From a virus: DNA of 64,000 bases. The stretch is taken from IMG/VR virus record IMGVR_UViG_3300028559_000025, positions 1 to 64,000 of that record; one strand, written 5' to 3'. The position numbers were made by a program, and so were the translations under genes. The notes under the pieces are model-generated. The model was not told where the DNA came from, made no database searches, and was given only the letters and a program-made list of their open reading frames with translations. This document shows positions 5,601 through 56,995 of the stretch, piece after piece (position 1 is the stretch's first letter; each line of letters starts with the position of its first letter).

Positions 5601-8600
5601 ATGGCTGATACTCAGTCCAATATTCAAGTAAACATTGATACTGCTCAAGCACTTGCTAGTATCAAAAACTTGCAGAGACAGATATCAGCCTTTCATTCCT
5701 CAATGGCTAAGGGTGGAGCTGCAGCTAATGCAGTTTCTACCCAGCTTCAGCAAACATTAATTAATTCAATAAACGCTACTGGTCAGTTTTCAGCAGGAAT
5801 AAGAACAATAAGGACTACCACTGAATCTTTTACTAATAGCCTAGAAAAAAATAAATTCTCACTAGGAGAATATTTTAGATACGCTGGTGGTGCAACAAAA
5901 ACTTTCGGCAGACTATTTAAGACTGAACATGACACCATAAATAAAGTAGCAAGAGAAAATGTAAAAGATTTACAAACACAGTATATTCGTCTAGGTCGTG
6001 ATGCTAGCGGAGCAATGAGGTCAATTGCTGTTAGACCTCTAGCTCTTGATATGACTGATCTTGGAACAAGAACACAGATAGCTGCTCAAAAGCAAGCAAT
6101 CTTAAATCAACTTTTAAAACAAGGATCAACCAACCTTCTTAACTTTGGTAAAAATACCCAATGGGCAGGACGCCAGCTTATGGTTGGTTTTACATTGCCA
6201 CTTATTGCAGTTGGATCTGCTGCTTCCAAAACATTCATGGATATGGAAACACAGGCTATTAGATTTAAGAAGGTCTATGGAGATTTATTTACACCCACTG
6301 GAGAATCACAGCAAGCATTAAAGGATATTCAAGAGCTGGGTAAAGAGTTTACTAAATATGGCATTGCAGTTTCAACAACCGTTGGTCTAGCAGCAGAAGC
6401 TGCAGCAGCAGGCTTTAAAGGTGTTGATCTACAAAGACAGACAGCAGCAGCAACCAGACTTTCTATTCTTGGTCAGGTAGAAAGCCAAAAAGCACTTGAA
6501 ACAACTATTGCATTACAAAATGCTTTCTCAATGTCTTCGGAAAATCTTTCGGAATCAATTGACTTTCTTAACGCAGTAGAAAACCAAACAGTACTTTCTC
6601 TTGATGACATTTCAACAGCTATTCCAAAAGCAGCTCCAGTTGTTCAACAACTTGGTGGTGATGTTAAAGATTTAGCTTTCCTTATGACTGCTATGAAGGA
6701 AGGTGGAATTAATGCATCAGAAGGTGCTAACGCACTTAAGTCAGGACTTGCATCTTTAATTAATCCAACTGGCAAAGCAAACGATATGCTTTTGAGTTTT
6801 GGAATTAATGCAAAAAAGATAGTTTTAGATAATAAGGGTGATCTTAAGAAAACTGTTGTTGAATTTGCAACAGCTTTAAACATGCTTGATCCACTTAATA
6901 GAGCTCAAGCCATTGAGCAAATGTTTGGAAAGTTTCAGTTTGCACGTCTTTCTACACTATTTGCAAACGTAACAAAAGAAGGAACTCAAGCATCTCGTGT
7001 TCTTGATTTAGCTGGAGCTTCAGTTCAAGAACTTGCAGGTTTGGCAGAAAAAGAATTAGGCATGACTTCAGAGTCTGCTATGAATAAATTTAAGGGTGCT
7101 GTTGAAAATCTAAAGCTATCTCTTATTCCGCTTGGAGAACAATTCTTAAAAGCAGTAACACCAATTGCTGAATTTATTACAAAAGTATTAGACAAGTTTA
7201 ATGGTTTTAGTGATAATACTAAAAAGATTATAGTTGTACTTACTGGAATAGTTGCAGGCCTTGGGCCAGTCTTGTTGATGACAGTTGGTTTGGTCATGAA
7301 CGGTCTTGCAAACATGATTAAACTTTTTTCATTTTTAAAGTCATCATTTAATAAAACTGGACAGGCAACTGCAATTCTAGGAACTGAAGTTCAGTATATG
7401 ACCACTGAACAAAGAAATGCAGCAGCAGTTGCAGCATCTCTTGATCAGGTTCACACTAAACTTGCACAAACATTTACCTCTGAAACAACAGCAGTTAATG
7501 CACTAACACGAGCATATCAAAGAGCAATTGCAGCTCAGTCACAATTTGTTCCAGTAGCTCCACCCATTACTCGTGGACCAATTAAAAAGTTTGCAGACGG
7601 AAGACCATTAACCGTTGGCGGTACAGGAAATCAAGATTCTGAACTAGCACTCTTGATGCCTGGAGAGACAGTAATACCAACAAAGATGAGTAAAAAGTAT
7701 GGTCCACTTATTAATGCAATGATTGCAGGAAACATACCTGGATATGAGTTTGGAAAAGAAGACGGAACCCCTGGAGCATTTTCTTTTGGCGGAAGAGAGT
7801 TTCCAGTAAGACAAGCCTCAATCCCTTCAGTAAGAAGATTTATAGCACAAATACAACAACTAGGCGGAGTAGTCTCTAACATTGATGATGTTATATTTAA
7901 AGTACTAGAAGATATGACATCGGAACTTGAAAAAGGTGCAAAGATTACCAAGTCAGGCCTTGAAAAAGCTATGGCAGCCAGTAATGTAACTGAATTAGCA
8001 AAAAGCACAAAGGCAGCACAAGGTGGTTTTGAAGGAAATGCTGGCGCAGTAATGGCGCATGGATTGCCTAAGATTACACTAACTCCAGAACAAGTAAAGG
8101 CATTTGAAGGTACAACAGTTGGAACAAGACTAGCAGACAGAGTTCCAGGTGCACCAGTAACTGGATTAAGTAATATGGTGTTTCCAATGCCAGCTGCATT
8201 TAATCAAGACAGAATGACTGGAGCAGAAGGTGCACAGTGGATAGGTCAAAATAGAACAAGGTTTACAACAGATTTTGCTGCACAGGCAGGCCTTAATCCA
8301 AATGATCCAGACTTACTTAGATTTGGAACTGCAGTTGGAAAGGCGCTAAAGTCTGCAGCATATAGAGGTGTAGTTGTAACTCAAGAAGATTTTGAAAGAA
8401 TAATTAGTCAGGCACTGGAAAAAGAAATATTTGATGTTGGAAAAAATACTTCTACTGCAGTTAAAACAGCTTTTGCAGATGCAAAAAAAGTTTCTACACT
8501 TATGTTCCCAACCGTATCCCAATCTGGAAGAACGGGTTATAGTAGAGTTCCTGTTGCAGAAGATATGCGAGGAACAACCGTAGATGGTATACCACTAGCA

Positions 8601-11600
8601 CAAGGGTCATCTTATAAAAATAGAGGCGTTACTGGCGCTCAGCATGAAGCAGCAGATAAGTTTACAATGAAAGCTGTTAGAGCAAGAGTCCGAAGATTCT
8701 TTACTAAAATGCCTAAAGAGGTAGAGCAAGAAGTTAAAGAAGTACTAGATATTAATTCACCATCAAGAGCTACCAAAAAGCTTGGTAATGATACAGCAAC
8801 TGGATTTGTTTCTGGTGTTAAGGAACTTAATGATGAGGCAAGGGCTGCTGGTAAACAGGTAGGCTCATCAGTAGTTTCTGGTGCTACACAAAGTGGAAGA
8901 GCACGCAGGGTAGCCACAAGACCTCAAGGACCTGCACCAATTGGAGCTACACCACAACCAGGCATGAGAATATTGCCAATCGTTCCTCCAAATCCTAAAG
9001 GACCAATTCCTCCAGATCCTAATGGGCCAACTCCAACAACTCAAACAAGAGGGCAGATGCTTGCTGATAGAGCAAGAGGTGTTGGTACAAGAATGAACTC
9101 TATGGGTGGAGGCATGGGTCTTTTGGGAGTCAACATGGGACTTTCAATGCTTCCAGATTTTGCTGGAAAAGGTGTTATACAAGGAGGTCTTGCAGGCGCC
9201 AATCTTGGCATGATGTTTGGTCCTTATGGAATGGCAGCTGGTGCAGCAATAGGATTAGTTACATCTGCTCTTGGCAATTTGATTGAAAAGCAAAAGCAAC
9301 ACAAAGCCATGACAGAGGCAATGTTTAAGTCAAGTTCATCTGTTGCAGAATTTTTTGGTAACGCTGTTGTAAATACAACAATGGAAGTGGGAAGACTTAG
9401 TAGCGCAACTCTGGCTGCTTCATCATCAACAGAAAATTTAGGAAAAAACTTTGGATATACAAATGAAGAACTACAAAGGTTTAGTGATCTAGTTAACTCT
9501 CTACCACAAGGTAATCCTCTAAAAGATATTTTGGTTGGACTAGAAGATGTAACTGATCCAGAAGAAATAAAGAAAATTATAGACAATTTTGTTACAACTC
9601 AAGTTGCTGTTGGCCAAACTCTTCCAGAACAAGCTCAAAAGATCTATGATTTAATTTTAGCTCAAAGTGGCAACCAATCTATGGTTGGGCAATCTTTCTA
9701 TAATTTTAAAACACAGTCTGAAGCTGTTTCTGCTACACTTAAAAATGCACGTAAAAATTCCGTAGATCTTGGTAATAGTTTAATTCAACTAACGGGTGCA
9801 GCATCTAATAGCTCATCTTTAATATTCATAAAATCAATTATTGACGGTATAGCCGCCTCTGGCATCAGCGCAGCAGAAGGTTTAAATGCTATGTACTATG
9901 CCTATATTAGAATAGGAAATCAGGGTGCAGCAGATTCATTACAAAACCTTAGAAGAATTCAGGGACTTACCCAAGCTGAGATAAATAGCCTTATGATATC
10001 TGGTACACAGGGATTTAGTTATCCAGTTGGACAAGATACAACACGTAAAGAAATACTAGAAGCCCAAGCAGAATTTAATAAAACCCTTAAAGAGGAAGGT
10101 CTTGTAAAATCAGGAATAAAGCCGTACAAAAATTTGGCTGATGAAAAAACAATTTCTATTAAAAAAGAAATTGACTTGTTAAAAAAGAGAAAAAAGATAA
10201 TTGATGATCAAATTAAAAAAGAAAAACAAATTACAGATGAATTAAAGAAGCAAAATGACTATAGAGATAAACAATTAAAGATTGACAAAGATATAGTTGA
10301 AGCAAAAATACGTGGAGACTATATTGGAGCTGCTATTCTTTTACAAGAAAAAACAAGCTTAACTGATGAATTTAATAAAGAAAATCAACTTTCAGCATTG
10401 CAGGCTCGTTCTGATGCTCTTCAACAACAGATAGAGGAAAGACAGTCTGTTAGTGATGATATGGTTGCAGCAATTCAATCCACAACAGATGCTGTTACAA
10501 CAGGTTCAGCAAACATTGTCACAGCTGTTAGAGAAGCAGGTGGATTTCCAAGTATAGACGGAGATGGAAGTTTTAAATCACCACTTACTATTGCTTCAGA
10601 TGCGGCATCAATAAAATCATATATAGAATCAGATAAACCATCAGCTGGAGTTTCAAACGAAGGGGTATCTGTAGGCACAGTAGCTCCTTCAGCAATTGAT
10701 GCAGCAAAAGCTTATAATGAAACTTTTGCAGAAAAAATTACTAGGCTGACTCAGCCAGGTCTTAAAACAGAAATGCAAATGCTTGAAGATTATATCAGAA
10801 CCCAGATTGTTTTTCCCCCAGACAAAAAACATATTTTTATTGAGATCAAAGGCAGTGATGGTTTATTTTATAAATTTAAGGTTGCTAAAGATAAAAATGC
10901 AAAAAATGGTTTTATTAGAGTTGGTGATCCAATTAAGAAAGCAGCTGGTGGATACATTGAAAACTTTATGGGTGGAGGAAATGTAAGAGGTGCTGGCACT
11001 GAGACTTCTGATTCTATAGCTGCATATCTTTCAAATGGCGAATATGTTATTAAAGCAAAATCTGTCAAGAAATATGGAACAGAAACTTTTGATGCTCTAA
11101 ATGCTGGAAGGTTTGCTAATGGTGGACTAATTAAAGGATATGATAATGGTGGATTAGTCTCAGGTACAGGTATGTACAGCGGAAGAATGTTTATCCCACC
11201 AAAGTATTCAACATCATATTCTGAACAATACGATCCACGCACCAAGCAACCTTTTAAATTCCCCGCTGAAGGTGAAACTGTTCATTTTATGGAAGACATG
11301 CTGCCACCTTCAATGCGTCCGCAAAAGAGTTTGTTCGGACAATTTAAGCGTCTGTTTACCCCTTCACTTTGGGGAATAGGAAAAGATGTACGGGGTAAAG
11401 ATGTAACAGGTGGAGTAGTAGATCTTCCTTATAATGTTGGATATAAAGGTATTTATAAGAATTTACTATTCCCAACTGCACTAATGCTAGACAGAGCTAC
11501 AAGGCTTGGCCCTAGTGGGCCGTCTGGTCTATATGGTAGCCCATTAGCTGGTACAAATAAAAAGAGAGAGGCTGAACTATTAGCTAGATCTAGAGCAGAA

Positions 11601-14162
11601 GGATTTGGCTCAGTCGCACCTGAAGTATTGCTCACCGCAGGACTTGATATGGCAAGTGTTTTTCCACTTACTGGAGTTGGTTCTAAAATAGGAAACATAG
11701 GATTCAGTCAAGCACAGATTGCAAAAATGGCTGCTGAAAAAGCTGCTCAAAAAGCTGCTACAAGATCAGCTTTAGAAAAAGCAGGTATTGGACTTCCAGG
11801 TATGATGCAGTCCATTCAATCTAGACTTAGTCCACAAGCTGCACTTAGAAAAAAGACCGCGTTTGCTAAAAATGCTGCAGTTGCAGCAATGATAGGTGCA
11901 TCAAAACCATTTGCTGAAAATAAACTTTCCTTAATGCTACCAGAGCTAAAGTCAAAAAATTCTGTTTCAACTTCTATTACAGCTAAGCCTGGTACTAAAA
12001 AACATGCTGGCACTCTTTCTGACTGGGTAGAGCACGATGGCTATAGAATACCAGTTTATCGTGGGGGCCCTTTTGGAGAAAACGAGTCAGTAATATTTCA
12101 AGGAATGGGAGAAGATTTTTCTCCAATTTTAAAACGCGGTCACGTTACAACAGTAATACCTACGTCACCATCAGGAATTTTAAAATATGCATTAGACCAA
12201 AAGCCAGGAGATAAAAATCTACAAGAATTACTAAATAGTTTTACTGCTGACCCAACAATACCTGGAGTAATAGGTAAAAAAGAAGAAGAATTTTTAATGC
12301 AAATGTTAGCAAGTTTAAATATAAATCTTGTAAAAAATACAACATTTGGTAGCAAAAGAACATTCTTTCCTAAGTTAGCGGATAGTCAGTCTACAGAAGG
12401 ATTAATGACATTTATTTCTTCTCTATTAGGAAATGAAAAAGCATCTTCTATTGTTAAATCTAAAACAAAAGCTATGAACCCTGAATTAAAAAAGATTGTA
12501 GATTCTTATGTAAAAGAAGCAGAGGAGCAACGATCAGCAATGGCTGCAAGAGCTGCTCAAGGGTATGATGTAGCACCAACAATAACATTAGACGAAGTTC
12601 CAATGATTAGGTCTTATAATCATGGAATAACATACAATAAAGACGGAGACATTGTTGAGCAAGCTGCTGGATTTCATATATTTAAAGATATATTCGGCCC
12701 ATCTGGTGGCACTCAAGGAGGAATTGCTAGATCAACAAAGCACTTCACAATAGGAGATTCAGTTCAGCAAAGAACTGGACATACTAGTGGATCAGTATGG
12801 AGTCCAAATCAACCAAAAGTAGTTACCACATTAAGAAATTTAATTGACAACAATGGTAATCCAGAAAATTTACATGAAGTAGACAGTTGGTGGATACAGC
12901 AATTTGGCAAAGAGTTTAAAATAGGAAGAAAAAACGCTAGCGTTATTCAACCCATTACTGGAAGAAAAGACTATATTGAAGAGCTAAAAAAGCTTGGGAT
13001 ATATAAAGAAGGAGAAGAATTTCCAATAATTGCAGAAAACGCTACAAATAAGTCTGTACACTATTTGCAAAAACCAAAATATTCTGAAAAAGAAATAGAG
13101 CAGATACTAAAAGAATTTAGTGATAATCGTTACGAGCTTCCATCAATATCAAGAATACCACAATCAAAAATGAACGGAAATCTAAAAAGAAAAGGCTTTC
13201 TATTTCAAGATTCACATGGAATAGCTTATACAGCCCATAGATTGTTAGAAATACTTGCCATACAACGTGCAAAAAAACAAATTGGTATAGATACACCATT
13301 TCAAAGACTTCAAGATCATAGCTCATCAAGCATAACTTTAAGTGATGACATAGCAGCGATAGCTCGCACTATTGGAGCAAAACCTAGTTCACGCCACAGC
13401 GATTCTAGTTTAAGCGATTTAGAAAGCGCTGGAACTAAAGGATTTTTTGATCAAGGCACTGAAGAAAATCCAGATTTTAGTAACCCATTTAAACTTCTAC
13501 AACGGGGTGGAACTTCAAGCACAGAGAATGCACTATCAGCAATGCTAATGCATCAATTTTTTGGAAAATATAGTAGCGGAAAAGTTAGATCAAATTCTAC
13601 TGACCCCGCGATAAGACTTTCTGAGGCAACAGGGCTGTATGTTCGTCAATTGATGGAATATAGGTCAGGTGCAACAACAACTCCCCCAAGCTGGGAAGAG
13701 TATGTTGCGTTAACAAAAAAAATACAAAAAGACTTGGAAGATAGCAGACTAGCCCTTTCTGCTGGTGGATATATCAATAACAGAAAAGTTAAACTTCCTA
13801 AGTTTGCTAATGGAGGTTCTATTAAGGGCTATGCAATGGGCGGACTTATAAAGGGACCAGGTACAGGAATATCAGATTCAATTCAAGCAGGCTTTGGATA
13901 TGCTGGTGGAGGATCAATTAGAGTTTCAAATGGAGAATATATTGTAAAGGCATCATCTGTTAGAGATTATGGCGTTAAGACAATGGATGCAATTAATAAC
14001 GGTACCGCAAGAGTTGGCACAGAATCTGGCGGTACAGTGTATAATATAAATATGCCTGTTACAAGTAATAATGCAAATCCAGAAATTGTTGCAAATGAAG
14101 TTATGAGAAAGCTAAAACTTGAAATAAGCAAGAATAATAAAACAAATAGAGTTGGTGGATAA
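5601..14162 (+). CDS. Tape measure protein with inserted cargo segments
   Basis: 2853 aa; TP901-like helical core (GGINASEGANALKSGL); three AxGG...GT..DS..A.L..GE.V motifs. Confidence 0.9.
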   Translation: MADTQSNIQVNIDTAQALASIKNLQRQISAFHSSMAKGGAAANAVSTQLQQTLINSINATGQFSAGIRTIRTTTESFTNSLEKNKFSLGEYFRYAGGATKTFGRLFKTEHDTINKVARENVKDLQTQYIRLGRDASGAMRSIAVRPLALDMTDLGTRTQIAAQKQAILNQLLKQGSTNLLNFGKNTQWAGRQLMVGFTLPLIAVGSAASKTFMDMETQAIRFKKVYGDLFTPTGESQQALKDIQELGKEFTKYGIAVSTTVGLAAEAAAAGFKGVDLQRQTAAATRLSILGQVESQKALETTIALQNAFSMSSENLSESIDFLNAVENQTVLSLDDISTAIPKAAPVVQQLGGDVKDLAFLMTAMKEGGINASEGANALKSGLASLINPTGKANDMLLSFGINAKKIVLDNKGDLKKTVVEFATALNMLDPLNRAQAIEQMFGKFQFARLSTLFANVTKEGTQASRVLDLAGASVQELAGLAEKELGMTSESAMNKFKGAVENLKLSLIPLGEQFLKAVTPIAEFITKVLDKFNGFSDNTKKIIVVLTGIVAGLGPVLLMTVGLVMNGLANMIKLFSFLKSSFNKTGQATAILGTEVQYMTTEQRNAAAVAASLDQVHTKLAQTFTSETTAVNALTRAYQRAIAAQSQFVPVAPPITRGPIKKFADGRPLTVGGTGNQDSELALLMPGETVIPTKMSKKYGPLINAMIAGNIPGYEFGKEDGTPGAFSFGGREFPVRQASIPSVRRFIAQIQQLGGVVSNIDDVIFKVLEDMTSELEKGAKITKSGLEKAMAASNVTELAKSTKAAQGGFEGNAGAVMAHGLPKITLTPEQVKAFEGTTVGTRLADRVPGAPVTGLSNMVFPMPAAFNQDRMTGAEGAQWIGQNRTRFTTDFAAQAGLNPNDPDLLRFGTAVGKALKSAAYRGVVVTQEDFERIISQALEKEIFDVGKNTSTAVKTAFADAKKVSTLMFPTVSQSGRTGYSRVPVAEDMRGTTVDGIPLAQGSSYKNRGVTGAQHEAADKFTMKAVRARVRRFFTKMPKEVEQEVKEVLDINSPSRATKKLGNDTATGFVSGVKELNDEARAAGKQVGSSVVSGATQSGRARRVATRPQGPAPIGATPQPGMRILPIVPPNPKGPIPPDPNGPTPTTQTRGQMLADRARGVGTRMNSMGGGMGLLGVNMGLSMLPDFAGKGVIQGGLAGANLGMMFGPYGMAAGAAIGLVTSALGNLIEKQKQHKAMTEAMFKSSSSVAEFFGNAVVNTTMEVGRLSSATLAASSSTENLGKNFGYTNEELQRFSDLVNSLPQGNPLKDILVGLEDVTDPEEIKKIIDNFVTTQVAVGQTLPEQAQKIYDLILAQSGNQSMVGQSFYNFKTQSEAVSATLKNARKNSVDLGNSLIQLTGAASNSSSLIFIKSIIDGIAASGISAAEGLNAMYYAYIRIGNQGAADSLQNLRRIQGLTQAEINSLMISGTQGFSYPVGQDTTRKEILEAQAEFNKTLKEEGLVKSGIKPYKNLADEKTISIKKEIDLLKKRKKIIDDQIKKEKQITDELKKQNDYRDKQLKIDKDIVEAKIRGDYIGAAILLQEKTSLTDEFNKENQLSALQARSDALQQQIEERQSVSDDMVAAIQSTTDAVTTGSANIVTAVREAGGFPSIDGDGSFKSPLTIASDAASIKSYIESDKPSAGVSNEGVSVGTVAPSAIDAAKAYNETFAEKITRLTQPGLKTEMQMLEDYIRTQIVFPPDKKHIFIEIKGSDGLFYKFKVAKDKNAKNGFIRVGDPIKKAAGGYIENFMGGGNVRGAGTETSDSIAAYLSNGEYVIKAKSVKKYGTETFDALNAGRFANGGLIKGYDNGGLVSGTGMYSGRMFIPPKYSTSYSEQYDPRTKQPFKFPAEGETVHFMEDMLPPSMRPQKSLFGQFKRLFTPSLWGIGKDVRGKDVTGGVVDLPYNVGYKGIYKNLLFPTALMLDRATRLGPSGPSGLYGSPLAGTNKKREAELLARSRAEGFGSVAPEVLLTAGLDMASVFPLTGVGSKIGNIGFSQAQIAKMAAEKAAQKAATRSALEKAGIGLPGMMQSIQSRLSPQAALRKKTAFAKNAAVAAMIGASKPFAENKLSLMLPELKSKNSVSTSITAKPGTKKHAGTLSDWVEHDGYRIPVYRGGPFGENESVIFQGMGEDFSPILKRGHVTTVIPTSPSGILKYALDQKPGDKNLQELLNSFTADPTIPGVIGKKEEEFLMQMLASLNINLVKNTTFGSKRTFFPKLADSQSTEGLMTFISSLLGNEKASSIVKSKTKAMNPELKKIVDSYVKEAEEQRSAMAARAAQGYDVAPTITLDEVPMIRSYNHGITYNKDGDIVEQAAGFHIFKDIFGPSGGTQGGIARSTKHFTIGDSVQQRTGHTSGSVWSPNQPKVVTTLRNLIDNNGNPENLHEVDSWWIQQFGKEFKIGRKNASVIQPITGRKDYIEELKKLGIYKEGEEFPIIAENATNKSVHYLQKPKYSEKEIEQILKEFSDNRYELPSISRIPQSKMNGNLKRKGFLFQDSHGIAYTAHRLLEILAIQRAKKQIGIDTPFQRLQDHSSSSITLSDDIAAIARTIGAKPSSRHSDSSLSDLESAGTKGFFDQGTEENPDFSNPFKLLQRGGTSSTENALSAMLMHQFFGKYSSGKVRSNSTDPAIRLSEATGLYVRQLMEYRSGATTTPPSWEEYVALTKKIQKDLEDSRLALSAGGYINNRKVKLPKFANGGSIKGYAMGGLIKGPGTGISDSIQAGFGYAGGGSIRVSNGEYIVKASSVRDYGVKTMDAINNGTARVGTESGGTVYNINMPVTSNNANPEIVANEVMRKLKLEISKNNKTNRVGG

Positions 14163-19637: not shown

Positions 19638-20180
19638 ATGCCATATGTTAAAATATCAGACCCTAATATTATAGATCTTGCTGCTTGGCACCAAGTTATT
19701 AATGTTATTAATCAACACAGCGATACTCTTTCTGCTATCACAAATAATTTTGGTATTAAAGGAACTGCTGTTACAGACTGGAATGGCGAAACAGAAATTT
19801 ACGAAGAATTTAATTCTGGCTCACAAAAAATACTTTATGGAAAGATTGTGATTGATACTAGAGCAGGTTCTGCCCAAGATTTAAACGTAAATAATTATCG
19901 TATGTTTTATCAAACAATAGATTTTGATAACGCTCCAAGTGGAACAGCTAGCTTTAAAGCAAAACCAGTTATAACAACTTCAATATCCCTTCCTGGCTCA
20001 ACTGTTACATCAGATAGAAACGTTGGTCTTATCTGTACTGTAATTGCAGTAACTCAAACAAGTTTTACGGTTCGTGTTATTAAGGCAAGAGAATTAACTG
20101 CAGAGACAGGCACAACGATTGCTGATCCAAAGCCAATTCAAACTTTTCAAATAAACTGGATTGCTATAGGACCAAAGTAA
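19638..20180 (+). CDS. Minor tail protein with H-type-lectin/gp53-like C-terminus
   Basis: FKAKPVI...VTQTSFTV...INWIAIG motif. Confidence 0.6.
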
Positions 20181-23100
20181 TGGCTAAGGTACCACCTAAG
20201 TCTGTTTATAAAAGCCCCAAGTCTGTTGCTAGAAATCAACCCGTAACAATAAGTGTTGATGATCCAAGAGCAGCTTGGGATAAGATTGGACAGACTAGAG
20301 CAAGGTTAGGCTCTGAACTTGAACTTGTTGGATTAGATGACATCCCTTTAATTAGTGGAGGAAAAAGTTTAACAGCATCGGTTGGTCCACCAACATTGGG
20401 TATACCAAAAGATCTAGAAAAATTTGTAAGTCCTCCAAGTAATGGCCAAGAAGCTAAAATTGTATATGGATTTGGTGCTATAGTACCAACAGATATTACT
20501 AATGTTTCAACAGCCTGGTCAGGATCAAGTCTTGTAGTTACATTTGATTGGGACTATGCAGATCCTGCTAATGCAACCGTTACAGAATTTATTTTAGAAA
20601 TAACTTTATCTACAGGCACAGTTCGTCAAACTCCATACGGTTCTTTTCCAGTAAATAGAACACAAACAGGACAAACAACAACACTTACAAAATCTTTAAA
20701 TAGATCTACCCTTGGCGTATTTGGAACAAACATTACAAGTATTTGTGTTTATGCTATTGATGCATTTTATAATACAAGTGGTAAGGTTTGTGATGCAACA
20801 GTTCCTGCATACGTGGTTAACCTACCAGTACCAGTTATTACAGTTACTTCAGCAATGAGTGGATATAGCGTAGCTTGGACAATTCCAACATCTGTTCAAG
20901 ATCCAGATGAGGTGTTTGACGCTATTGATATTTATGAATATGAGTCTAGTGCTTCTACAGAACCAACAGATGTCACTTATTCAAGGGTATACTTTGATCA
21001 AGTTTCACCAGCAAATATTATTACAGTTAATAGTAATGATAGATGGGTAAAGGCAAGATTTTCTTCAGATGGAGGAACATACACAGCATTTTCTGCTGCA
21101 CAAAAAGTAACACCAACATCTCCAGTTACAGTAGACACCACTGGACCAGCCGCTCCAACTGGATCAGTAACTGGTGGATTAGAAACTTCTGGAACGATAG
21201 GCTTTAATGCTTTCTTAAATATATCTTGGACTGCAGTATCAGATACTACTTTACGAGGGTATAGAATTAGGTTTAGACCAGTAACTACTCCAGCATCTGC
21301 TTACTCTTATGTAGACTCCCCAGGAAATGGAACAACTTTTAGAATTACAGGTCTTGCTTCAGGCACAAGCTATGAAGTTCAAATTGCATCATATGATGAG
21401 TTTAATAACACTTCTTCATCATATCAAACATTAACTAATAGCCCAGTGTCAACTGCTGGATCTCCCTTTATAGGAACAAATGTTTCTACAACTGGATACT
21501 TTGAAGCTGGAGTTTCTGGAACAGATACAGGAGTTTTTAGATTTGGCTACGGGGTAGCTACTGGTAAAAGAGGCTTATCATTTAATACAAACAATTATTG
21601 GTATATAGATTCATCTCAGTCAGCGTCTTTAAAGGTTGGTGGAGCAGACAACTATGTTACTTGGGACGGCTCATCTCTTATAGTAGCTGGAGACCTACAG
21701 GCTAAAAAAGGATCGTTTAGCGGAAACGTAAACATTGCAAGTGGTGCATCTCTATATAGTGGTACTTTAACTGGAAATACCGTTACTGCTTCTGCTAATA
21801 CTGGTGGTTCATTGTCTAGTGCAGGATACATATTAAATGAAGATGGAATTACATTTTCTAATGGGCTATCAGGAAATGATTTAAGACAAACTACTATAGT
21901 TGGAGCAAGTGGATTACTCACAACAAATTCAGCAAATATAGGTGGATGGATTATAACTCCAGGCTCAATAACAAAAACTGCAAGGGGAGAAGGAAAGATT
22001 TCTTTAGACTCAGCAAATGGATACATCTATGTAACTAGAGACGATGTAGAGACAATTACTGCTGGTATTAATAGTCCAAAAGATGATAACGATAATGTTT
22101 TTTGGTCTGGCGGAAGTAATCCAACAGATGAAACAAGCCCATTTAGAGTTAGACTAAATGGAGATCTATTTGCAAGCAATGCAGAAATTAAAGGTGTTAT
22201 AAGGGCTACTAGTGGTGGTTTTGGAACATTTGATCCATCTACTAACCTTATTACAAACGGTTGGACTATTAGTACCAATGGAATAATTGCAAAGGGTGAG
22301 GGTAGCATTAAAATTGGAAACTATTCAATACAAACTCTTGAGCCAGACGGTTCTGATTTTTCAATAAAATATATTGCAGGTAATGAAAACCTAATAAGAA
22401 CAGATTCTTTTGCTAGCAATGTTGATGATCCAAAAAGAATATTTATAGGTGATAGTACAAGACAGGTTGAAGTTGCTAAATCAGCAAGCCTATCTGGAGC
22501 TGGTTCAATAGTAACTTTGCCAACAAGCAATGCTACAGCTCTAAGTGCTTATCGCTCAGGTGGTCTAAGAAATATATTTACTGTTTCAGAGTCCGCAAGA
22601 AGTGGTTCAACTGGAGACGGAGTAGATTTTAGTGGAAATGTGCTAGATTATCCATCAGCAATTAAGGGTGACATGCTGATTGTTTATAAAACTACAGGAA
22701 CCAATCCAGACCCTAAATGGAGAGAGGTAGTCGCAACATACGTAGCCATTACTGGTACAGCCCCTACTCCAACGCCAACACCTACTCCAACGCCAACGCC
22801 AACTCCAACGCCAACACCTACGCCAACACCTACACCAACTCCAACCCCTACTCCTACGCCAACACCTACGCCAACACCTACGCCAACACCTACTCCAGTA
22901 CAAAGCACCTATTACTTTGTTTGTGACGATACACAATGTGGTTCAGTACTTGCCTCATCCGCTCTTGAAGCAGTTGCACTTGGAAACGCATATTGTCAAG
23001 ATAATGCAGATCCAGGACTTACAAATAATGTAGCTGGAGGAGTATCACTAACACCAATTCCTGGTTGTGCTCCAACTCCAACACCTACTCCAACACCTAC

Positions 23101-23446
23101 GCCAACACCTACACCAACACCTACACCAACACCTACGCCAACTCCAACGCCAACACCTACGCCAACACCAGTAACAGAAACAAGTAGAACAGTTGGAACC
23201 TGTATATCATATGTTTATTGCCCAGAAGGTGGAGAGAGACTAGATACTGTTTATTATTCAAATGGAACTAGTAGTGAGCAATATGTTTGCTGTTCTTATA
23301 CAGCAACAGCAACTCCAACGCCAACTCCTGAACCAACACCAACCCCAACCCCTACACCAACTGAATGCCAAACATGCGGCATCTGCTGCCTGTACGGACC
23401 ATGTGAATATGGCTGTGGCCCATGCGACTTTTGGTGTGATGACTAG
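20180..23446 (+). CDS. Tail fibre/receptor-binding protein: FN3 domains, beta-helix-like region, (Pro-Thr)n linkers, Cys-rich tip
   Basis: FN3 (ISWT...GYRIRFRP...[18 protein letters not shown]); GGW.I repeats; three PT tracts; C-terminal [24 protein letters not shown]. Confidence 0.75.
22763..22897 (+). repeat. (Pro-Thr)n coding repeat, 45 codons
   Basis: CCN-ACN hexamers with varied third positions. Confidence 0.95.
23072..23170 (+). repeat. (Pro-Thr)n coding repeat, 33 codons
   Basis: CCN-ACN hexamers. Confidence 0.95.
23312..23362 (+). repeat. Short TP/EP coding repeat
   Basis: [17 protein letters not shown]. Confidence 0.9.
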
Positions 23447-23479
23447 TATGGTAGAATTTTATAATAAAAAGGAGAAAAA

Positions 23480-23875
23480 ATGAAAAGAAAAAATTTCTAT
23501 TTAAATGTAGAGGATGATAAAATCATCTTTTATTCAATAGAACTTAAAGATGATGGCTCTGTTTTAGATGATAATAAGCACAATAAAGATTATGCTTTAT
23601 CTAATAGTCCAGAAATATTAAATATTACACATTTGAATTATGTTCCAGCCAAACTTAGTGTTTGGGATGGATCAGAGTTTATTGCTCCAGAAGGGCTAGA
23701 GCACAGGCTGCCTTGTATAAGAGATTGCATAGATGGATGTATATCTTTTGCGTTTTTAAAAAATAATACGTATTATGGAATGAACGGATATTGTATTGGA
23801 GTGGCACATAATGATATGCTTATTGCTGCATTATCAAGCAATCCAACAATAACATTTGAGATTGTAGAATCTTAA
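23480..23875 (+). CDS. Fibre-associated protein (possible chaperone)
   Basis: AGGAG RBS; WDGSEFIAP motif; MLIAALSSNP; directly after the fibre gene. Confidence 0.5.
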   Translation: MKRKNFYLNVEDDKIIFYSIELKDDGSVLDDNKHNKDYALSNSPEILNITHLNYVPAKLSVWDGSEFIAPEGLEHRLPCIRDCIDGCISFAFLKNNTYYGMNGYCIGVAHNDMLIAALSSNPTITFEIVES

Positions 23876-23896
23876 TAATAGAATGGGTGGAATTTT

Positions 23897-24136
23897 ATGA
23901 AAGACGAATTAACTCCTTGGCAAAAGTATAAACAAAATCTTGGAGATACAAGACCTTGGGATTTATTAAATCCGAACACAGAATATGTTAGTGATGACTT
24001 ACATTCTGATAGACTTAATATATGCAAGGCTTGTCCAGAGTTTATATCTCTAACAACTCAATGTAAAAAATGTGGTTGTGTAATGAAATTTAAAACAAAG
24101 TTAGAAAAAGCAACTTGTCCAATAGGAAAATGGTAA
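23897..24136 (+). CDS. Small Cys-rich protein (DUF6171-like)
   Basis: RLNICKACP...QCKKCGC.M..KTKL..ATCPIGKW. Confidence 0.7.
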   Translation: MKDELTPWQKYKQNLGDTRPWDLLNPNTEYVSDDLHSDRLNICKACPEFISLTTQCKKCGCVMKFKTKLEKATCPIGKW

Positions 24137-24139
24137 AAA

Positions 24140-24739
24140 ATGATAAAAGAAGAAGTTGCACCAGGTATAGTTGTATATAATAATGTAATTCCAGATAGCG
24201 AAAATCTATACAAAGATATTGAAGAAGGTATAATTTCTGCGGGATTAAAATGGATAGAAGCAGAAGTAAAAGAATCTTCAGATCCAATGGTAAATACTAA
24301 AACAAGAGATACAAGCGCTATTGGTATTCCTTACATGGGTGGTCTTAAAGATATATCAACAGAAAGTAAGTCTGAGACCTTTCTTATAAACACTAATAAT
24401 ATGTTTTTTAAAAATTTTGATCCAATAGAAAAAGATTATATGCAAACATACGGGGTATATTCAGAGTGGCACGACACCTATGGCATTTTAAAATATGGAT
24501 CTGGTCAGTTTTTCAGTAACCATATAGATGACCACCCTACATATCATAGAAGAATTTCTACTCTATACTATTTAAATGATAACTATACAGGTGGAGAAAT
24601 TAATTTTCCTCGTTTTAATATTACTTTTAAACCAAAAGCTAATCAAATGATTTTATTTCCATCAACCTATGTCTATAACCACTCAGTGTCTCCAGTTATT
24701 GAAGGAGAAAGATATGCTGTGGTTTCATGGATGAAGTAG
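24140..24739 (+). CDS. 2OG-Fe(II) oxygenase, prolyl 4-hydroxylase-like
   Basis: LKY..GQFF..HID (HxD); YLNDNYTGGEI.F; FPS...H.V.PV..GERY. Confidence 0.85.
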   Translation: MIKEEVAPGIVVYNNVIPDSENLYKDIEEGIISAGLKWIEAEVKESSDPMVNTKTRDTSAIGIPYMGGLKDISTESKSETFLINTNNMFFKNFDPIEKDYMQTYGVYSEWHDTYGILKYGSGQFFSNHIDDHPTYHRRISTLYYLNDNYTGGEINFPRFNITFKPKANQMILFPSTYVYNHSVSPVIEGERYAVVSWMK

Positions 24740-24756
24740 TCTGATACAATATAAGT

Positions 24757-25686
24757 ATGGATAAAATTTTTGTAAGTCTTGCTGGGTATAGAGATCCAGA
24801 TTTAATTAATACAGTTAGAAGTTTTTACGAAAATGCAAAAAATAAAGATAATCTGTTTTTTTCTTTAGTCTCACATGAAGGACCAGAAACAAATTTTGAT
24901 TTTTCATTTATACCAAAAGAACAAATATCTTATCAAAAGATTGACTATAAATTAGCAGATGGAGCATGCTCTGGAAGACATTTAGCTAACTCCCTACTAT
25001 CTGATCAATATAAATATTTTTTGCATACAGACTCTCACTCAAGAGCAAAAGTAGAATGGGATAGAATGCTTATTGATGAATATACTAAGTGTTCTTCAAA
25101 ATGGGGAACAGATTATATATTTACTAAATACCCCCATGGATTTTTAAAAGAGTGGGATGAAAATGGAAACGGCACTGACAAAATAAATCTAAATAACGAA
25201 AGTTTACATAAGGTAGTTCCAGAGTGGGATGAAATAGAGAATGTTTATTTGTTAAGATGGAGAGACCTTGAGGACTTAGAGTTTGGCGATAAAGTTTATG
25301 GCTTTGCTGCTAACTTTGCTTTTGGTTCTGTAAAGGCATTTATGAAGGCCCCATATGATCCATATTTATATTTTCTAGGAGAAGAAATAAGCCTTGGAGT
25401 TCGTCTTTCAGTACAAGGGGTAAATCTAGTTGCCCCAGCAATCAATGCAATATATACAAATTACGATAGAGATAATGGAAAAAGGGGTGGGTTTCATTGG
25501 AATGATAATTCAAACTGGGGATTAAGAGATAAAAGCGCAAGAGAAAGACTGACAAAACTATTTACTCTACAAGATTTGGGAATGTATGGATTACAAGATC
25601 ACGTTGAAGAGTATAGAGCTTTGCAAACAGAAATGGGTCTTGACTTTGAATCAAAAGATTATATAAAGCCAATTTATAAAAACTAA
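24757..25686 (+). CDS. GT60-like GlcNAc transferase (Skp1-hydroxyproline/polypeptide GlcNAcT family)
   Basis: IFVSLAGYRDPDL..TV; DSH metal motif (HTDSHSR...WD); PYDPYLYFLGEEISLGVRL. Confidence 0.8.
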   Translation: MDKIFVSLAGYRDPDLINTVRSFYENAKNKDNLFFSLVSHEGPETNFDFSFIPKEQISYQKIDYKLADGACSGRHLANSLLSDQYKYFLHTDSHSRAKVEWDRMLIDEYTKCSSKWGTDYIFTKYPHGFLKEWDENGNGTDKINLNNESLHKVVPEWDEIENVYLLRWRDLEDLEFGDKVYGFAANFAFGSVKAFMKAPYDPYLYFLGEEISLGVRLSVQGVNLVAPAINAIYTNYDRDNGKRGGFHWNDNSNWGLRDKSARERLTKLFTLQDLGMYGLQDHVEEYRALQTEMGLDFESKDYIKPIYKN

Positions 25687-55285: not shown

Positions 55286-55972
55286 ATGTCAAATACAGCT
55301 TTAATTATGTGCACTTATATAAGGTTTGAAAACCTTAAAAAAACTTTGGGTTGCATAGAAAGACAAACCAATAAAGATTTTGATTTTTATATTGTTGATA
55401 ACTCTAATAGACATGAAAAGTTGTTGGGGTACCTTGATAAATTTGGCAAAGGTATTGATATAACTGTACACAACTATCATAATGAATTTAAACAGTTCGC
55501 TAGATTCTTATTGGCAAGAGATCTTGCTGAGCAAGGATATGAAAAAATTATATTTATTGATGATGATGAAATTATTCCAGACACATTTATACAGGAATGC
55601 CACGAACAATATGAAGAAGGCTCTATAAAATCTTTTTGGGCACATATGGTTGAAGAAAGATATAACAGAAAAATAAAATTAGAAAAAAATGAAATAGGTA
55701 ACTACGCTGGAACAGGTGGACTTATATGTAGCTCTAAGCTATTTTTAAATGACGACTTTTTTGATTGCCCTGAAGAATATTGGATCATTGATGATCTTTG
55801 GTTATCTTATTATGTATTAAGTTTTACAGACTATAAGATTAAAGAACTTAAAACAAATATTCAATTTATAAAAGATATGAAGGCAACATTCATGACATTA
55901 GGAAACTTAAAACAAAAATTTTCAAATGATTTTATTATCCCAGTATCTAAAAAGCTTGATTTAAAGCTGTAG
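55286..55972 (+). CDS. GT2-family glycosyltransferase
   Basis: IMCTY.R; IVDN; FIDDD; DDLWLS. Confidence 0.8.
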   Translation: MSNTALIMCTYIRFENLKKTLGCIERQTNKDFDFYIVDNSNRHEKLLGYLDKFGKGIDITVHNYHNEFKQFARFLLARDLAEQGYEKIIFIDDDEIIPDTFIQECHEQYEEGSIKSFWAHMVEERYNRKIKLEKNEIGNYAGTGGLICSSKLFLNDDFFDCPEEYWIIDDLWLSYYVLSFTDYKIKELKTNIQFIKDMKATFMTLGNLKQKFSNDFIIPVSKKLDLKL

Positions 55973-56995
55973 CAATTCTCTATATCCTGCTATTAAACTA
56001 TTGGCTGAAAAGTTTGTTAATCCTATTTGATATGCCTGATCCTTATAAATACTCATATCACTTTCATAATAATTATCAACTATTTTAGCTAACATTTTAG
56101 CATCTCCCCCATAAACATCAAGCATTATACGAGTCATTAGCCTATCAATCTTTTTAGAGTCTGTAAGCCATTCCTGCGGAAGTATCTTGTTGTTAGGGGA
56201 TATATTGGTCATAAAAACGGGTAGAGCGCTCATTAGAGCCTCGTTCATAGGTAGACATAGGCCTGCATACCGCCTTGGCATTACCATAGCGTCATAGCCT
56301 TCGTAGAGGCTTTCTCTGGTATCTGGACTAGAGGTATCAATGACCAGTCTTGGATCATCACATTCTGTATCTAGGGGGGTTTGACTCTTGATTACAAGTT
56401 GATAATCACTCTTAGAATACTTAAGCATTTCAATTACCGTACTTGTGCCGTTTCTATCTTTTACAGCAGCCTTGCCACCAATGTGTAATATTTTTTTGTG
56501 AGTCTTGCTTGTATTAATATTTTTTGCACCAGCAAATAAATCTATGCTTGTTGGAGGTGGAAGATAAACTACTTTGGTTTTGTCACCAAACTTTTCAACA
56601 ACATCGGTAAAGTTCCATAGGCTTGGAGCAACTAAAATGTCTGGTAGTTGAAGGTCTGGGTTGGCTAAATAGTCCAAGAATTCATAGTTGTATTGAAGAA
56701 CAGTTTTAACTTTTCTTTTCTTTGCTATAGAAATAAATGAGTTGTTGTAGAATATTTCACAACTAAGTACTACATCTAGTCCGTCTATGAACTCATATAC
56801 CTCTTCTTTAGAGGCCATTCCTCGTTTAGTAGTCAAGCAATTGTACCCTTGATACCATTCTGGATGCTGCGTGTTGTCATTAAATTGCGAGGAATCAATA
56901 AGAAGAACCTTATCAGGATTAAGCATTTTAACAAGCTCTTTAGTCTGATTACCTAGTCCAGTGTTGTCAGACCTTGCAATGATTCCTAATCTCAT
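55961..56995 (-). CDS. GT-B (GT4-like) glycosyltransferase
   Basis: GLGNQT; YD..V.P....GL.LP.NEA...LPV. Confidence 0.8.
   Translation of the reverse strand: MRLGIIARSDNTGLGNQTKELVKMLNPDKVLLIDSSQFNDNTQHPEWYQGYNCLTTKRGMASKEEVYEFIDGLDVVLSCEIFYNNSFISIAKKRKVKTVLQYNYEFLDYLANPDLQLPDILVAPSLWNFTDVVEKFGDKTKVVYLPPPTSIDLFAGAKNINTSKTHKKILHIGGKAAVKDRNGTSTVIEMLKYSKSDYQLVIKSQTPLDTECDDPRLVIDTSSPDTRESLYEGYDAMVMPRRYAGLCLPMNEALMSALPVFMTNISPNNKILPQEWLTDSKKIDRLMTRIMLDVYGGDAKMLAKIVDNYYESDMSIYKDQAYQIGLTNFSANSLIAGYRELLQL

Follow-up and report, generated by a model that had tools for sequence, protein, structure and literature searches.

A candidate prolyl hydroxylase and glycosyltransferase cassette behind a mucin-like tail fiber gene in a lake-water phage and its relatives

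The window analyzed here is a stretch of 64,000 nucleotides from the 76.7-kb viral record IMGVR_UViG_3300028559_000025. In this window, a tape measure gene (positions 5601 to 14162) and a gene for a 1,663-aa minor tail protein precede a tail fiber gene (20180 to 23446, plus strand; 1,088 aa), whose product matches fn3 (E = 3.5e−6) and phrog_11445, a "minor tail protein" family (E = 5e−15). The fn3 match falls in the N-terminal shaft, and the C-terminal third is mucin-like, with three (PT)n tracts split by Cys-rich knots. The first tract, (PT)22 (22763 to 22894; residues 862 to 905), spans 44 aa, or 47 with its flanks, and shows a 12-nt period with 85% matches and varying codons. The second, (PT)16 (23072 to 23167; residues 965 to 996), spans 32 to 34 aa, and the third, interrupted by one PE (23315 to 23362; residues 1046 to 1061), spans 16 aa. 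These lengths are close to the 45, 33, and about 17 residues given by the first-pass annotation, and all the open reading frames (ORFs) it named lie where it had placed them. The first knot (22895 to 23071) has four Cys and is homologous to modules present three times in the fiber of a relative, L022 (BLASTP, 42% identity, E = 8e−8). The second (23168 to 23314) also has four Cys, at residues 1008, 1014, 1037, and 1038. The fiber ends in a Cys-rich tip (23363 to 23446) with eight Cys within 26 residues, and its last 175 residues hold 16 Cys in total. Similar tips terminate the fibers of five relatives (L028, L088, L089, L141, and L156). This fiber is the sole protein with P/T tracts encoded in the record, in which no collagen-like gene was found. 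The Pro residues of the tracts are encoded by CCA (29) and CCT (17) and the Thr residues by ACA (18), ACG (13), ACT (11), and ACC (3). Hence, 13 of the 45 Thr codons of the tracts are ACG, versus 1 of 117 in the rest of the gene. The synonymous variation, which had been read as a sign of selection on the protein, is thus present, but the tracts also show a clear 12-nt period with 85 to 91% matches, suggesting that they probably grew by unit duplication.

The genes behind the fiber lie on the same strand. Two of them, both placed between the fiber and the oxygenase, had not been named in the first reading. The first (23480 to 23875) encodes a 131-aa protein that had no match in Pfam or PHROG and for which the protein atlas gave no lead; it is carried by a minority of the cassettes, with homologs in the same slot in L045, L048 to L050, and L068. 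The second (23897 to 24136) encodes a 79-aa DUF6171 protein (PF19668, E = 4e−7; phrog_13558, E = 9e−17). This small, zinc-ribbon-like protein has six invariant Cys, arranged as CxxC...CxxCGC...CP.GKW (invariant columns of 46 sequences). DUF6171 is the steadiest partner of the glycosyltransferase described below among the relatives and is fused to it in three loci (L032, L039, and L207). It also stands alone behind fibers devoid of mucin-like tracts in at least eight loci.

The next two genes encode the enzymes. The 2OG-Fe(II) oxygenase (24140 to 24739; 199 aa) starts 694 bp past the fiber stop and is the only PF13640 gene of the record (E = 2e−18). Its HxD...H...R set, reported as intact by the first-pass annotation, is indeed so: H128, D130, and H181 do not vary among 20 relatives, and the conservation of R191 in them is at least 90%. 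The family profile matched best the P4H of Bacillus anthracis (8e−15), followed by P3H1, the Chlamydomonas P4H, and vCPH of PBCV-1; its top matches were exclusively protein prolyl hydroxylases, in agreement with the proposed P4H-type family. In other cassettes, the place of the P4H-type gene can be taken by a member of a second, Pfam-less family ("alt") with a 2OG-oxygenase fold; two members of this family matched Asp_Arg_Hydrox weakly (E = 0.0055 and 0.064). The glycosyltransferase (24757 to 25686; 309 aa) starts 1,311 bp past the fiber stop, such that both enzymes begin within the 1.5 kb initially indicated. It is a GT-A enzyme of family GT60 (PF11397 "GlcNAc," E = 2e−36), as had been deduced from its motifs: Y11-R12-D13, D92-x-H94, and G208-E209-E210 are kept in 17 homologs, down to 28% identity. 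The nearest solved folds of its AF2 model (pLDDT of 94.5) are the GT27 enzymes ppGalNAc-T2/T1/T12/T10/T4 (E = 3e−9), a family that starts mucin O-glycosylation on Pro/Thr repeats. Neither a signal peptide nor a membrane anchor was found in the two enzyme sequences, and the GT60 ORF opens straight into the catalytic domain; both enzymes are predicted to be soluble.

The linkage between these enzymes and mucin-like fibers recurs in other phages. Among the IMG/VR relatives with down to about 33% GT identity, a DUF6171 gene beside GT60, and a visible upstream gene, the latter encoded in every case a fiber with Pro/Thr-rich linkers between Cys knots, the linkers being (PT)n, (VTPP)n, poly-Thr, or similar. 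We also analyzed those relatives of the 1,663-aa tail protein for which 6 kb or more of downstream sequence was available, in counts that ignore kinship. GT60 was found behind 6 of 10 mucin-like fibers and 1 of 31 others (P = 3e−4), and any hydroxylase or GT60 was found behind 9 of 10 and 3 of 31, respectively (P = 6e−6). The single exception was L156, whose (YYAPPV)n linker and Cys tip were overlooked by the P+T measure. This co-occurrence supports a functional link between the enzymes and fibers with Pro/Thr linkers. In the relatives with the nearest backbones (94 to 95% identity), linker type and enzyme set both differ. Moreover, five cassette-bearing genomes (G006, G007, G008, G016, and G017) lack a true homolog of the tail protein of the window; across these unrelated tail modules, the fiber N termini are unrelated (E = 0.33) and the Cys knot is common to both. 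The fiber-enzyme linkage is thus conserved and mobile, extending to tail modules that are unrelated. A single group of low-GC lake phages contributes many of the surveyed loci, and the statistics are blind to kinship, so part of the linkage may reflect co-inheritance within a variable fiber region.

The (PT)n repeat by itself is a poor predictor of the enzymes, since in-frame (PT) tracts of eight or more units occurred in 113 viral loci, only 15 of which had any cassette enzyme nearby. These were concentrated in loci whose (PT)n proteins have Cys-rich tails (11 of 16, versus 4 of 97 others); the enzymes go with PT or T-rich linkers that are combined with Cys knots rather than with (PT)n alone. 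The more distant GT60 genes of viruses (L051 to L055 and L073 to L087) are solitary, with neither DUF6171 nor a P/T protein beside them. The P4H-like genes are numerous in this phage group (8 to 13 per complete genome), which makes the presence of one beside any given gene less surprising. In complete relatives lacking the cassette, a collagen-like gene and the gene of an (FFP)n-repeat protein are immediately followed by arrays of P4H-like genes, which again adjoin Pro-repeat proteins.

The enzyme set follows linker chemistry. Among cassette loci, 42 of the 49 whose linkers are Pro-rich had a hydroxylase (P4H-type or "alt"), versus none of the 23 with Pro-poor ones, in counts that ignore kinship; by cluster, the difference was 17 of 24 versus 0 of 7 (P = 0.0013). 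GT60 is also found behind Thr-rich, Pro-poor linkers with no hydroxylase nearby, and hydroxylases with no GT60 in view occur as well, on contigs that are fragments. The adjacency extends to the chromosomes of several bacterial phyla: proteins with P/T/S linkers made up 18 of 93 neighbors of bacterial GT60 genes versus 19 of 943 background ORFs (odds ratio, 11.7; P = 1e−10), with examples in Pseudoduganella, Sphingomonas, and Actinomycetota.

Taken together, these data lead us to favor, with some confidence, that the cassette modifies the tail fiber of the phage itself. The modification would take place in the host cytoplasm, ahead of tail assembly: the P4H-type oxygenase would hydroxylate prolines of the fiber linkers, and GT60, a soluble enzyme related to the polypeptide HexNAc transferases of the mucin type, would add a sugar, expected from its family to be GlcNAc, to linker Thr/Ser and possibly to Hyp, with DUF6171 as an accessory factor. 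Such changes could affect the stiffness, protease resistance, and host recognition of the fiber and might, as the first-pass annotation proposed, follow O2 or Fe availability. The first-pass annotation had proposed that the phage carries these enzymes next to their substrate, and both the families and the linkage to Pro/Thr-linker fibers agree with it. The obligatory series from Pro to Hyp to Hyp-GlcNAc is disfavored, and so is (PT)n alone as a predictor. Because GT60 accompanies Pro-poor linkers in loci that lack a hydroxylase, parallel action of the two enzymes (Pro to Hyp and Thr/Ser-O-HexNAc) is more probable than action in series.

The enzymes could instead be host-directed accessory genes ("morons") that act, during infection, on a protein or an envelope component of the host, their position reflecting only a hot spot at the end of the tail module where fiber tips and accessory genes are exchanged jointly. 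The abundance of P4H-like oxygenases in these phages, which PHROGs classes as auxiliary or host-takeover genes, would fit this, as would the solitary distant GT60 genes and the absence of cassette enzymes near most (PT)n phage proteins. However, a hot spot does not predict that hydroxylases follow linker chemistry, and the repeated adjacency in bacterial chromosomes and the joint occurrence of cassette and mucin-like fiber end in unrelated tail modules also argue against it, rendering this explanation rather unlikely. Alternatively, the fiber could be the substrate with the Cys-rich knots, not the linkers, as the modified part. In animals, EGF-like modules undergo Asp/Asn beta-hydroxylation and O-glycosylation, and the knots could be the conserved target here because the enzymes concentrate in (PT)n loci with Cys-rich tails; the Cys-rich nature of DUF6171 and the Asp_Arg_Hydrox matches of the two "alt" oxygenases point the same way. 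We regard this as still less probable, since hydroxylase presence tracks the Pro content of the linker, P4H-type genes also lie behind Pro-repeat proteins lacking Cys-rich tails (L164, with poly-Pro, L239, and the (FFP)n proteins), the profile matches are prolyl and not Asp/Asn hydroxylases, and the GT fold is nearest to mucin-type enzymes, whose acceptors are unstructured Pro/Thr repeats. Finally, TET/JBP-type oxygenases and DNA glycosyltransferases hypermodify bases in some phages, and the pair does sit at the border of the tail and replication modules, with helicase, primase, and DnaE genes beginning about 1.4 kb downstream, but the building of a hydroxylated and then glycosylated DNA base is very improbable here, as the oxygenase is P4H-type (PF13640) and not Tet_JBP, both GT60 and the folds nearest to it transfer to polypeptides, the scanned proteins of the window included no methyltransferase, hydroxymethylase, or other base modification enzyme, and in relatives the cassette moves with the fiber and not with the replication genes.

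Modification of the fiber linkers would have several close parallels. One is the Skp1 pathway of Dictyostelium and Toxoplasma, in which PhyA is followed by Gnt1, a GT60 enzyme that depends on it (PMC6939170). Both systems pair a soluble cytoplasmic P4H-type 2OG oxygenase with a soluble GT60, as predicted for the phage. In contrast, the phage system lacks the Skp1 target, its candidate substrate is a long repeat instead of a single Pro, its oxygenase profile is nearer to collagen and cell wall P4Hs (B. anthracis, Chlamydomonas, and PBCV-1) than to the PHD type, and none of the extension enzymes PgtA, AgtA, Glt1, and Gat1 was identified in it. A Hyp acceptor also seems not to be obligatory, since phage-type GT60 occurs behind Thr-rich linkers with no hydroxylase. 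With mucin-type O-glycosylation (GT27 ppGalNAc-Ts and the GT60 pp-alpha-GlcNAc transferases of Trypanosoma cruzi and Dictyostelium), the phage enzyme shares the GT-A fold and the DxH metal motif, and its candidate acceptor, a Pro/Thr tandem repeat between Cys-rich modules, has the plan of a mucin domain. In eukaryotes, these enzymes are type II membrane proteins of the Golgi, and many have a lectin domain, whereas the 309-aa phage enzyme appears soluble, lacks this domain, and has DUF6171 as a neighbor or fusion partner.

PBCV-1 (Paramecium bursaria Chlorella virus 1) vCPH and the B. anthracis P4H belong to the same P4H clade as the phage oxygenase. The substrates of the chlorovirus enzyme are Pro-rich repeats of the virus's own proteins, and the enzyme of B. 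anthracis is linked to BclA, a collagen-like, Thr-glycosylated exosporium protein. Their owners, however, are an algal giant virus and a bacterium, neither with a GT60 partner, and we know of no tailed phage in which virion hydroxylation has been demonstrated. In plant and algal hydroxyproline-rich glycoproteins (extensins), P4H and glycosyltransferases also act on Pro-rich repeats; the Chlamydomonas match and the (YYAPPV)n linker of L156 recall them. Extensins are modified by Hyp-arabinosyl and Ser-galactosyl transferases in the secretory pathway, and the resemblance is only in composition and logic. In mycobacteriophages, phage-encoded GTs near structural genes glycosylate capsid and tail tube subunits in the cytoplasm. 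This virion glycosylation, mentioned secondhand in PMC11256854, likewise combines a GT near structural genes with virion proteins as targets (candidate targets in our case), but it involves other GT families, capsid and tail tube instead of fiber linkers, and neither a hydroxylase nor DUF6171. As in the first reading, which knew of no phage system with such a layout, our literature search found no earlier description of a phage cassette for fiber hydroxylation and glycosylation. If the fiber is indeed the substrate, this lake-water phage and many of its relatives would decorate their own receptor-binding fibers much like eukaryotic mucins.

The cassette region marks the end of a siphovirus-type tail module in a lake phage record of 76.7 kb that is estimated to be about 72% complete, the window being its first 64 kb. 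The tape measure gene (5601-14162) is followed by a 149-aa gene, the 1663-aa minor tail protein, a 180-aa gene, and the 1088-aa tail fibre (20180-23446, + strand), and genes for a helicase, a primase, and DnaE are found from about 27 kb on. The fibre has an fn3 domain and a match to the PHROG "minor tail protein" and is the only P/T-tract protein of the record. In its final 230 residues, three tracts, namely (PT)22, (PT)16, and a short (PT)n, are separated by two knots of four Cys each, the first of them 59 aa long, and a C-terminal tip packs 8 Cys into 26 residues. On the same strand follow a 131-aa ORF without family, for which the protein atlas gave no lead, a DUF6171 gene (79 aa), a 2OG-FeII_Oxy_3 oxygenase (24140-24739; E = 2e-18), and a PF11397 "GlcNAc" transferase of family GT60 (24757-25686), so that all the ORFs, tracts, and downstream enzymes described in the first-pass annotation are present. 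Another gene of the window (42358-44637) encodes a 759-aa protein with a PA14 domain of glycan-binding type (E = 1.5e-11). The nucleotide search of the cultured-phage collection gave no close match, and the GT60-like genes in that collection were only distant ones from Xanthomonas and Stenotrophomonas jumbo phages (24 to 25% identity). A public run search identified 12 lake-water metagenome runs that each contain at least 83% of the sampled words of the stretch, several of which may be its source, and no RNA run with the stretch among those searched.

The first-pass annotation had taken the variation of synonymous codons in the PT tracts as a sign of selection on the protein. Pro and Thr codons do vary inside the tracts, but the argument from this single gene is weakened by a 12-nt period in the tract DNA (85 to 91% matches) and by the Thr codon ACG, used in 13 of 45 cases in the tracts (22763-23362) versus 1 of 117 in the rest of the gene. 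Because of this period and this bias, the tracts look like expanded 12-nt units. Selection on the protein is argued more by the persistence of such tracts across many divergent relatives than by this gene. The Pro codon CCT is also enriched in the tracts (17/46 versus 7/50 in the rest of the gene).

The transferase belongs to CAZy GT60: it matched PF11397 with 126.7 bits (cut-off 21; E = 1.9e-36) over profile positions 2 to 37 and 95 to 316 of 352, corresponding to the catalytic domain. The YRD, DxH, and GEE motifs are invariant or nearly so in 17 homologues, down to 28% identity, and D92-S-H94, the metal-binding DxH motif shared with GT27, is invariant in all of them. The AF2 model (pLDDT 94.5) has a GT-A fold whose top PDB matches are GT27 polypeptide GalNAc transferases (E = 3e-9; TM of about 0.6), the enzymes that start mucin O-glycosylation; no solved GT60 chain was detected by single-sequence or profile searches. 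GT60 enzymes transfer alpha-GlcNAc from UDP-GlcNAc to Thr/Ser or hydroxyproline (Hyp) of polypeptides, and the family includes a polypeptide alpha-GlcNAc transferase of Trypanosoma cruzi as well as Gnt1, which acts on the Hyp of Skp1 and depends on the hydroxylase PhyA (PMC6939170).

The assignment of the oxygenase to the prolyl 4-hydroxylase (P4H) type, with an intact HxD...H...R set, was borne out as well. Across 20 sequences, the iron triad (H128, D130, and H181) does not vary, and R191, the basic residue of the set for the C5 carboxylate of 2OG, shows at least 90% conservation. The family profile retrieved from the PDB, as its nearest characterised relatives, the prolyl hydroxylases B. anthracis P4H (Bacillus anthracis; 8e-15), P3H1 (1e-7), Chlamydomonas P4H (7e-7), and vCPH of chlorovirus PBCV-1 (2e-6); PKHD-type enzymes and PHD2 ranked below these. 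In many cassettes, the place of this gene is taken by a second family of about 190 aa, here called "alt," which has no Pfam match but an invariant HxD...HxR (e.g., L009:9428-9997 and L009:10962-11525 in a viral relative). Its model (pLDDT 92) shows a 2OG-Fe(II) oxygenase fold, the nearest folds being those of PHD2, a Pseudomonas P4H, and vCPH; AlkB is only slightly more distant. Both the oxygenase and the transferase of the window begin directly at the catalytic domain, without signal peptide or anchor, and should therefore act in the cytoplasm.

The association of these enzymes with mucin-like fibres was analyzed from both sides. A profile search of IMG/VR for GT60 returned at least 587 GT60-like genes, and 85 loci were examined with purpose-built HMMs. 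Most loci, down to a transferase identity of about 33%, have DUF6171 directly before GT60, often with an oxygenase (P4H-type or alt) between the two, and more distant GT60 genes (about 30 to 34% identity) stand alone. Wherever the gene upstream of a DUF6171-linked cassette was visible, its product was a fibre in which Pro/Thr-rich linkers join small Cys knots, usually with a Cys-rich tip, the linkers being (PT)n, (PTPPS)n, (VTPP)n, poly-Thr, or (AAPGTT)n. The second survey started from 78 relatives of the 1663-aa tail protein (46 to 95% identity); those with 6 kb or more of downstream sequence were scored over the next 10 kb. GT60 was found in 6 of the 10 loci whose fibre has a mucin-like tract (window included) and in 1 of the 31 without, and any hydroxylase or GT60 in 9/10 and 3/31, respectively (Fisher test; P = 3e-4 and P = 6e-6, with loci counted without correction for shared descent). 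The test of co-occurrence proposed in the first-pass annotation supports a link between the fibre and the enzymes. The P+T measure missed the (YYAPPV)n linker and the Cys tip of L156, the sole GT60-positive locus of the low class; L115, the sole enzyme-less locus of the high class, has poly-Pro linkers devoid of Thr and lacks a Cys tip. In the L156 fibre (L156:17443-19410), about 11 copies of YYAPPV, of extensin-like composition, precede the Cys-rich tip; DUF6171 and GT60 genes come next downstream.

The nearest backbone relatives (94 to 95% identity) combine other linker types with other enzyme sets: (VTPP)n with DUF6171, alt, and GT60 in L088 and L095, and poly-Thr with DUF6171 and a DUF7164-GT60 fusion in L089 and L092. 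Five phage genomes (G006, G007, G008, G016, and G017) have the cassette but no real homologue of the tail protein of the window. Over its first 860 residues, the fibre of the window shows no relationship to that of L003, another viral relative (E = 0.33), while the Cys knot that separates its PT tracts shares 42% identity with a module present three times in the fibre of L022. Taken together, these data indicate that the mucin-like end of the fibre and the enzymes move between tail modules as one unit.

The enzyme content of the cassettes follows the chemistry of the linkers. The comparison covered 72 loci in which a P/T/S-rich protein is followed within 4.5 kb by DUF6171 and/or GT60. A hydroxylase was part of the cassette in 42 of the 49 with Pro-rich linkers versus none of the 23 with Pro-poor ones, and the difference persisted when the anchor proteins were clustered at 70% identity (17/24 versus 0/7; P = 0.0013). 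This confinement is indirect evidence for the hydroxylation of peptidyl-Pro at C4 predicted for the oxygenase. GT60 is present in both classes. Some Pro-repeat proteins are followed by a P4H-type gene but by no visible GT60 (L164, L239, and L141, all contig fragments), and the remainder of these hydroxylase-only contigs, 8 to 31% complete, gave no GT60 match. Conversely, seven clusters with Thr-rich, Pro-poor linkers have GT60 without a nearby hydroxylase. This speaks against an obligatory series in which Pro is converted to Hyp and then to Hyp-GlcNAc, as the first-pass annotation described for Skp1, and membership in the Skp1-type HyPro pathway was rejected on the same ground and because there is no Skp1. 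The simplest reading of these gene contents is that the two enzymes would act in parallel, the hydroxylase on the Pro and GT60 on the Thr/Ser of the linkers, with Hyp as a possible acceptor of GT60 in the Pro-rich cases.

A similar adjacency is found in bacteria. Among the neighbours of 76 chromosomal GT60 homologues (23 to 40% identity), 18 of 93 same-strand ORFs within 600 bp had P/T/S-rich linkers; in the background of 943 ORFs of 250 aa or more, drawn from the same loci, the number was 19 (odds ratio 11.7; P = 1e-10), spurious open frames in high-GC DNA being a concern. Proteins of 1,200 to 1,800 aa that bear (PTETPA)n, (TPPPS)n, or a PT-rich tract end just before GT60 in Pseudoduganella, Noviherbaspirillum, Sphingomonas, and Actinomycetota; P/T-linker proteins in this position, from Pseudoduganella, Sphingomonas, and Actinomycetota MAGs, include L293:3715-7917, L295:6253-7959, L306:2622-7970, L315:4375-7995, and L325:2146-6819, among others. 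Several Gammaproteobacteria have instead a protein of about 1,200 aa with a P4H-like domain upstream of GT60. DUF6171 was found in only one bacterial locus, a pond MAG contig (40% identity) that may be a phage. The bacterial adjacency and the tracking of linker chemistry by the hydroxylase are both left without account if the enzymes are directed at the host and were merely co-transferred with the fibre at a hot spot, which we consider unlikely.

In a reverse search, IMG/VR was scanned for DNA that encodes 10 or more PT units, and at least 120 loci were recovered. Among the matches listed, most (PT)n proteins had none of the enzymes nearby, and the enzymes were concentrated with the Cys-rich-tailed (PT)n proteins (11/16 versus 4/97 of the others; P = 9e-9). 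Therefore, (PT)n alone is not diagnostic, and the result shows that much of the co-occurrence signal comes from one fibre family of low-GC freshwater phages. The concentration with Cys-rich tails also keeps alive a variant of the fibre-substrate idea in which the enzymes modify the Cys knots, an option to which we give little credence. Hypermodification of DNA by the oxygenase and the transferase is very improbable, since the oxygenase matches only PF13640 and PF13661, not Tet_JBP, the transferase is a relative of polypeptide transferases, and the scanned window proteins include no base-modifying companion such as a methyltransferase or hydroxymethylase (ten further proteins yielded as functions only RecA, a Cas4-like nuclease, RuvC, and endolysin). 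That the fibre is the substrate of the cassette enzymes is, in our assessment, probable.

P4H-like genes have other settings in the relatives. The record of the window has a single PF13640 gene; three complete relatives of 108 to 114 kb (G009, G010, and G011) have 8 to 13 each and no close GT60, G009 carrying one distant GT60-like gene at 92.6 kb without an adjoining P/T protein. Most of these PF13640 genes form one tandem array of about 8 to 10 paralogues (L365:275-11729, which is G009:57275-68729, - strand; G010:91460-99992; G011:55764-65459), directly downstream of a collagen-like gene and of an fn3 protein that ends in about 60 to 130 residues of (FFP)n, e.g., PFFPPFFPFFP. Such abundance makes a P4H beside any given gene less surprising, and P4H-like genes behind Pro-repeat proteins are a recurring theme. 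An (FFP)n motif also occurs within the PT/Cys-knot fibre L022:5410-7074, beside a DUF6171-alt-GT60 cassette. Collagen-like proteins are plausible P4H substrates in the relatives; as a universal substrate they were rejected for this phage, whose 76.7-kb record has no run of at least five GXY repeats.

The window also contains a six-gene glycan cluster (55286-60065), with two GT2, two GT1-like, an NTP transferase, and an FkbM methyltransferase gene, and nearby a weak sulfotransferase-like ORF (62534-63109). Extension of the fibre glycan by this cluster found no support, because its transferase at 59124-60065 has counterparts in the cassette-less genomes G010, G013, and G015 and is absent from the cassette-bearing G006, G007, and G008; cluster and cassette do not co-vary among relatives. 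For the L035, L037, and L164 fibres, a Hint/intein-like nature of the C-terminal domains was considered and discarded, as the two that were scanned (L035 and L164) had no Pfam support.

DUF6171, for which the protein atlas gave viral clusters only, is fused to GT60 in one open frame in three viral loci (L032:350-1444, L039:1215-2300, and L207:915-2129). The predicted complex of the two separate proteins scored 0.06, which lends an interaction no support but does not count against one. The DUF7164 fusion is a 594-aa GT60 with N-terminal DUF7164 (L089:12382-14163; also in L092) behind a poly-Thr fibre, and the L089 tail protein is 94% identical to that of the window. A second, divergent DUF6171 copy is found on the opposite strand, about 6 to 7 kb upstream of the main cassette and near collagen-like genes, in L003:2611-2823 (-), L006:963-2143 (-), and L012:2038-3218 (-), the latter two paired with a second P4H-like gene.

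Taken more broadly, we tentatively propose, as a possibility short of a firm expectation, that prokaryotes and phages have a cytoplasmic, GT60-based mucin-type O-glycosylation of Pro/Thr-rich linkers, in phage tail fibres and in large bacterial surface proteins, accompanied in phages often by DUF6171 and prolyl hydroxylases. Mycobacteriophages are known to encode enzymes that glycosylate their virions, and a chlorovirus is known to encode a P4H. Tail fibres determine host range; to our knowledge, the enzymatic modification of these fibres by the phage's own enzymes is almost unexplored. In the literature, we found no paper that connects phage fibres with GT60, DUF6171, or prolyl hydroxylation, in agreement with the first-pass annotation, which knew of no described phage system with this layout. 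The pairs of enzyme and substrate are adjoining, small, and soluble and thus easy to express. If confirmed, this would be the first prolyl hydroxylation and the first GT60-type mucin-like O-glycosylation of a phage virion, and both the GT60 enzymes of prokaryotes and DUF6171 would gain their first function. Since P4H requires O2, Fe(II), and 2-oxoglutarate, fibre maturation could, speculatively, track the physiological state of the host. The genomes of aquatic phages abound in 2OG-Fe(II) oxygenase genes for which, as far as we know, there is no known substrate; confirmation would provide a testable role for at least some of them. If the proposal is true, some P4H-like oxygenases of aquatic phages would be virion-maturation enzymes that make hydroxyproline in Pro-repeat fibres, be these (PT)n, (VTPP)n, collagen-like, or (FFP)n.
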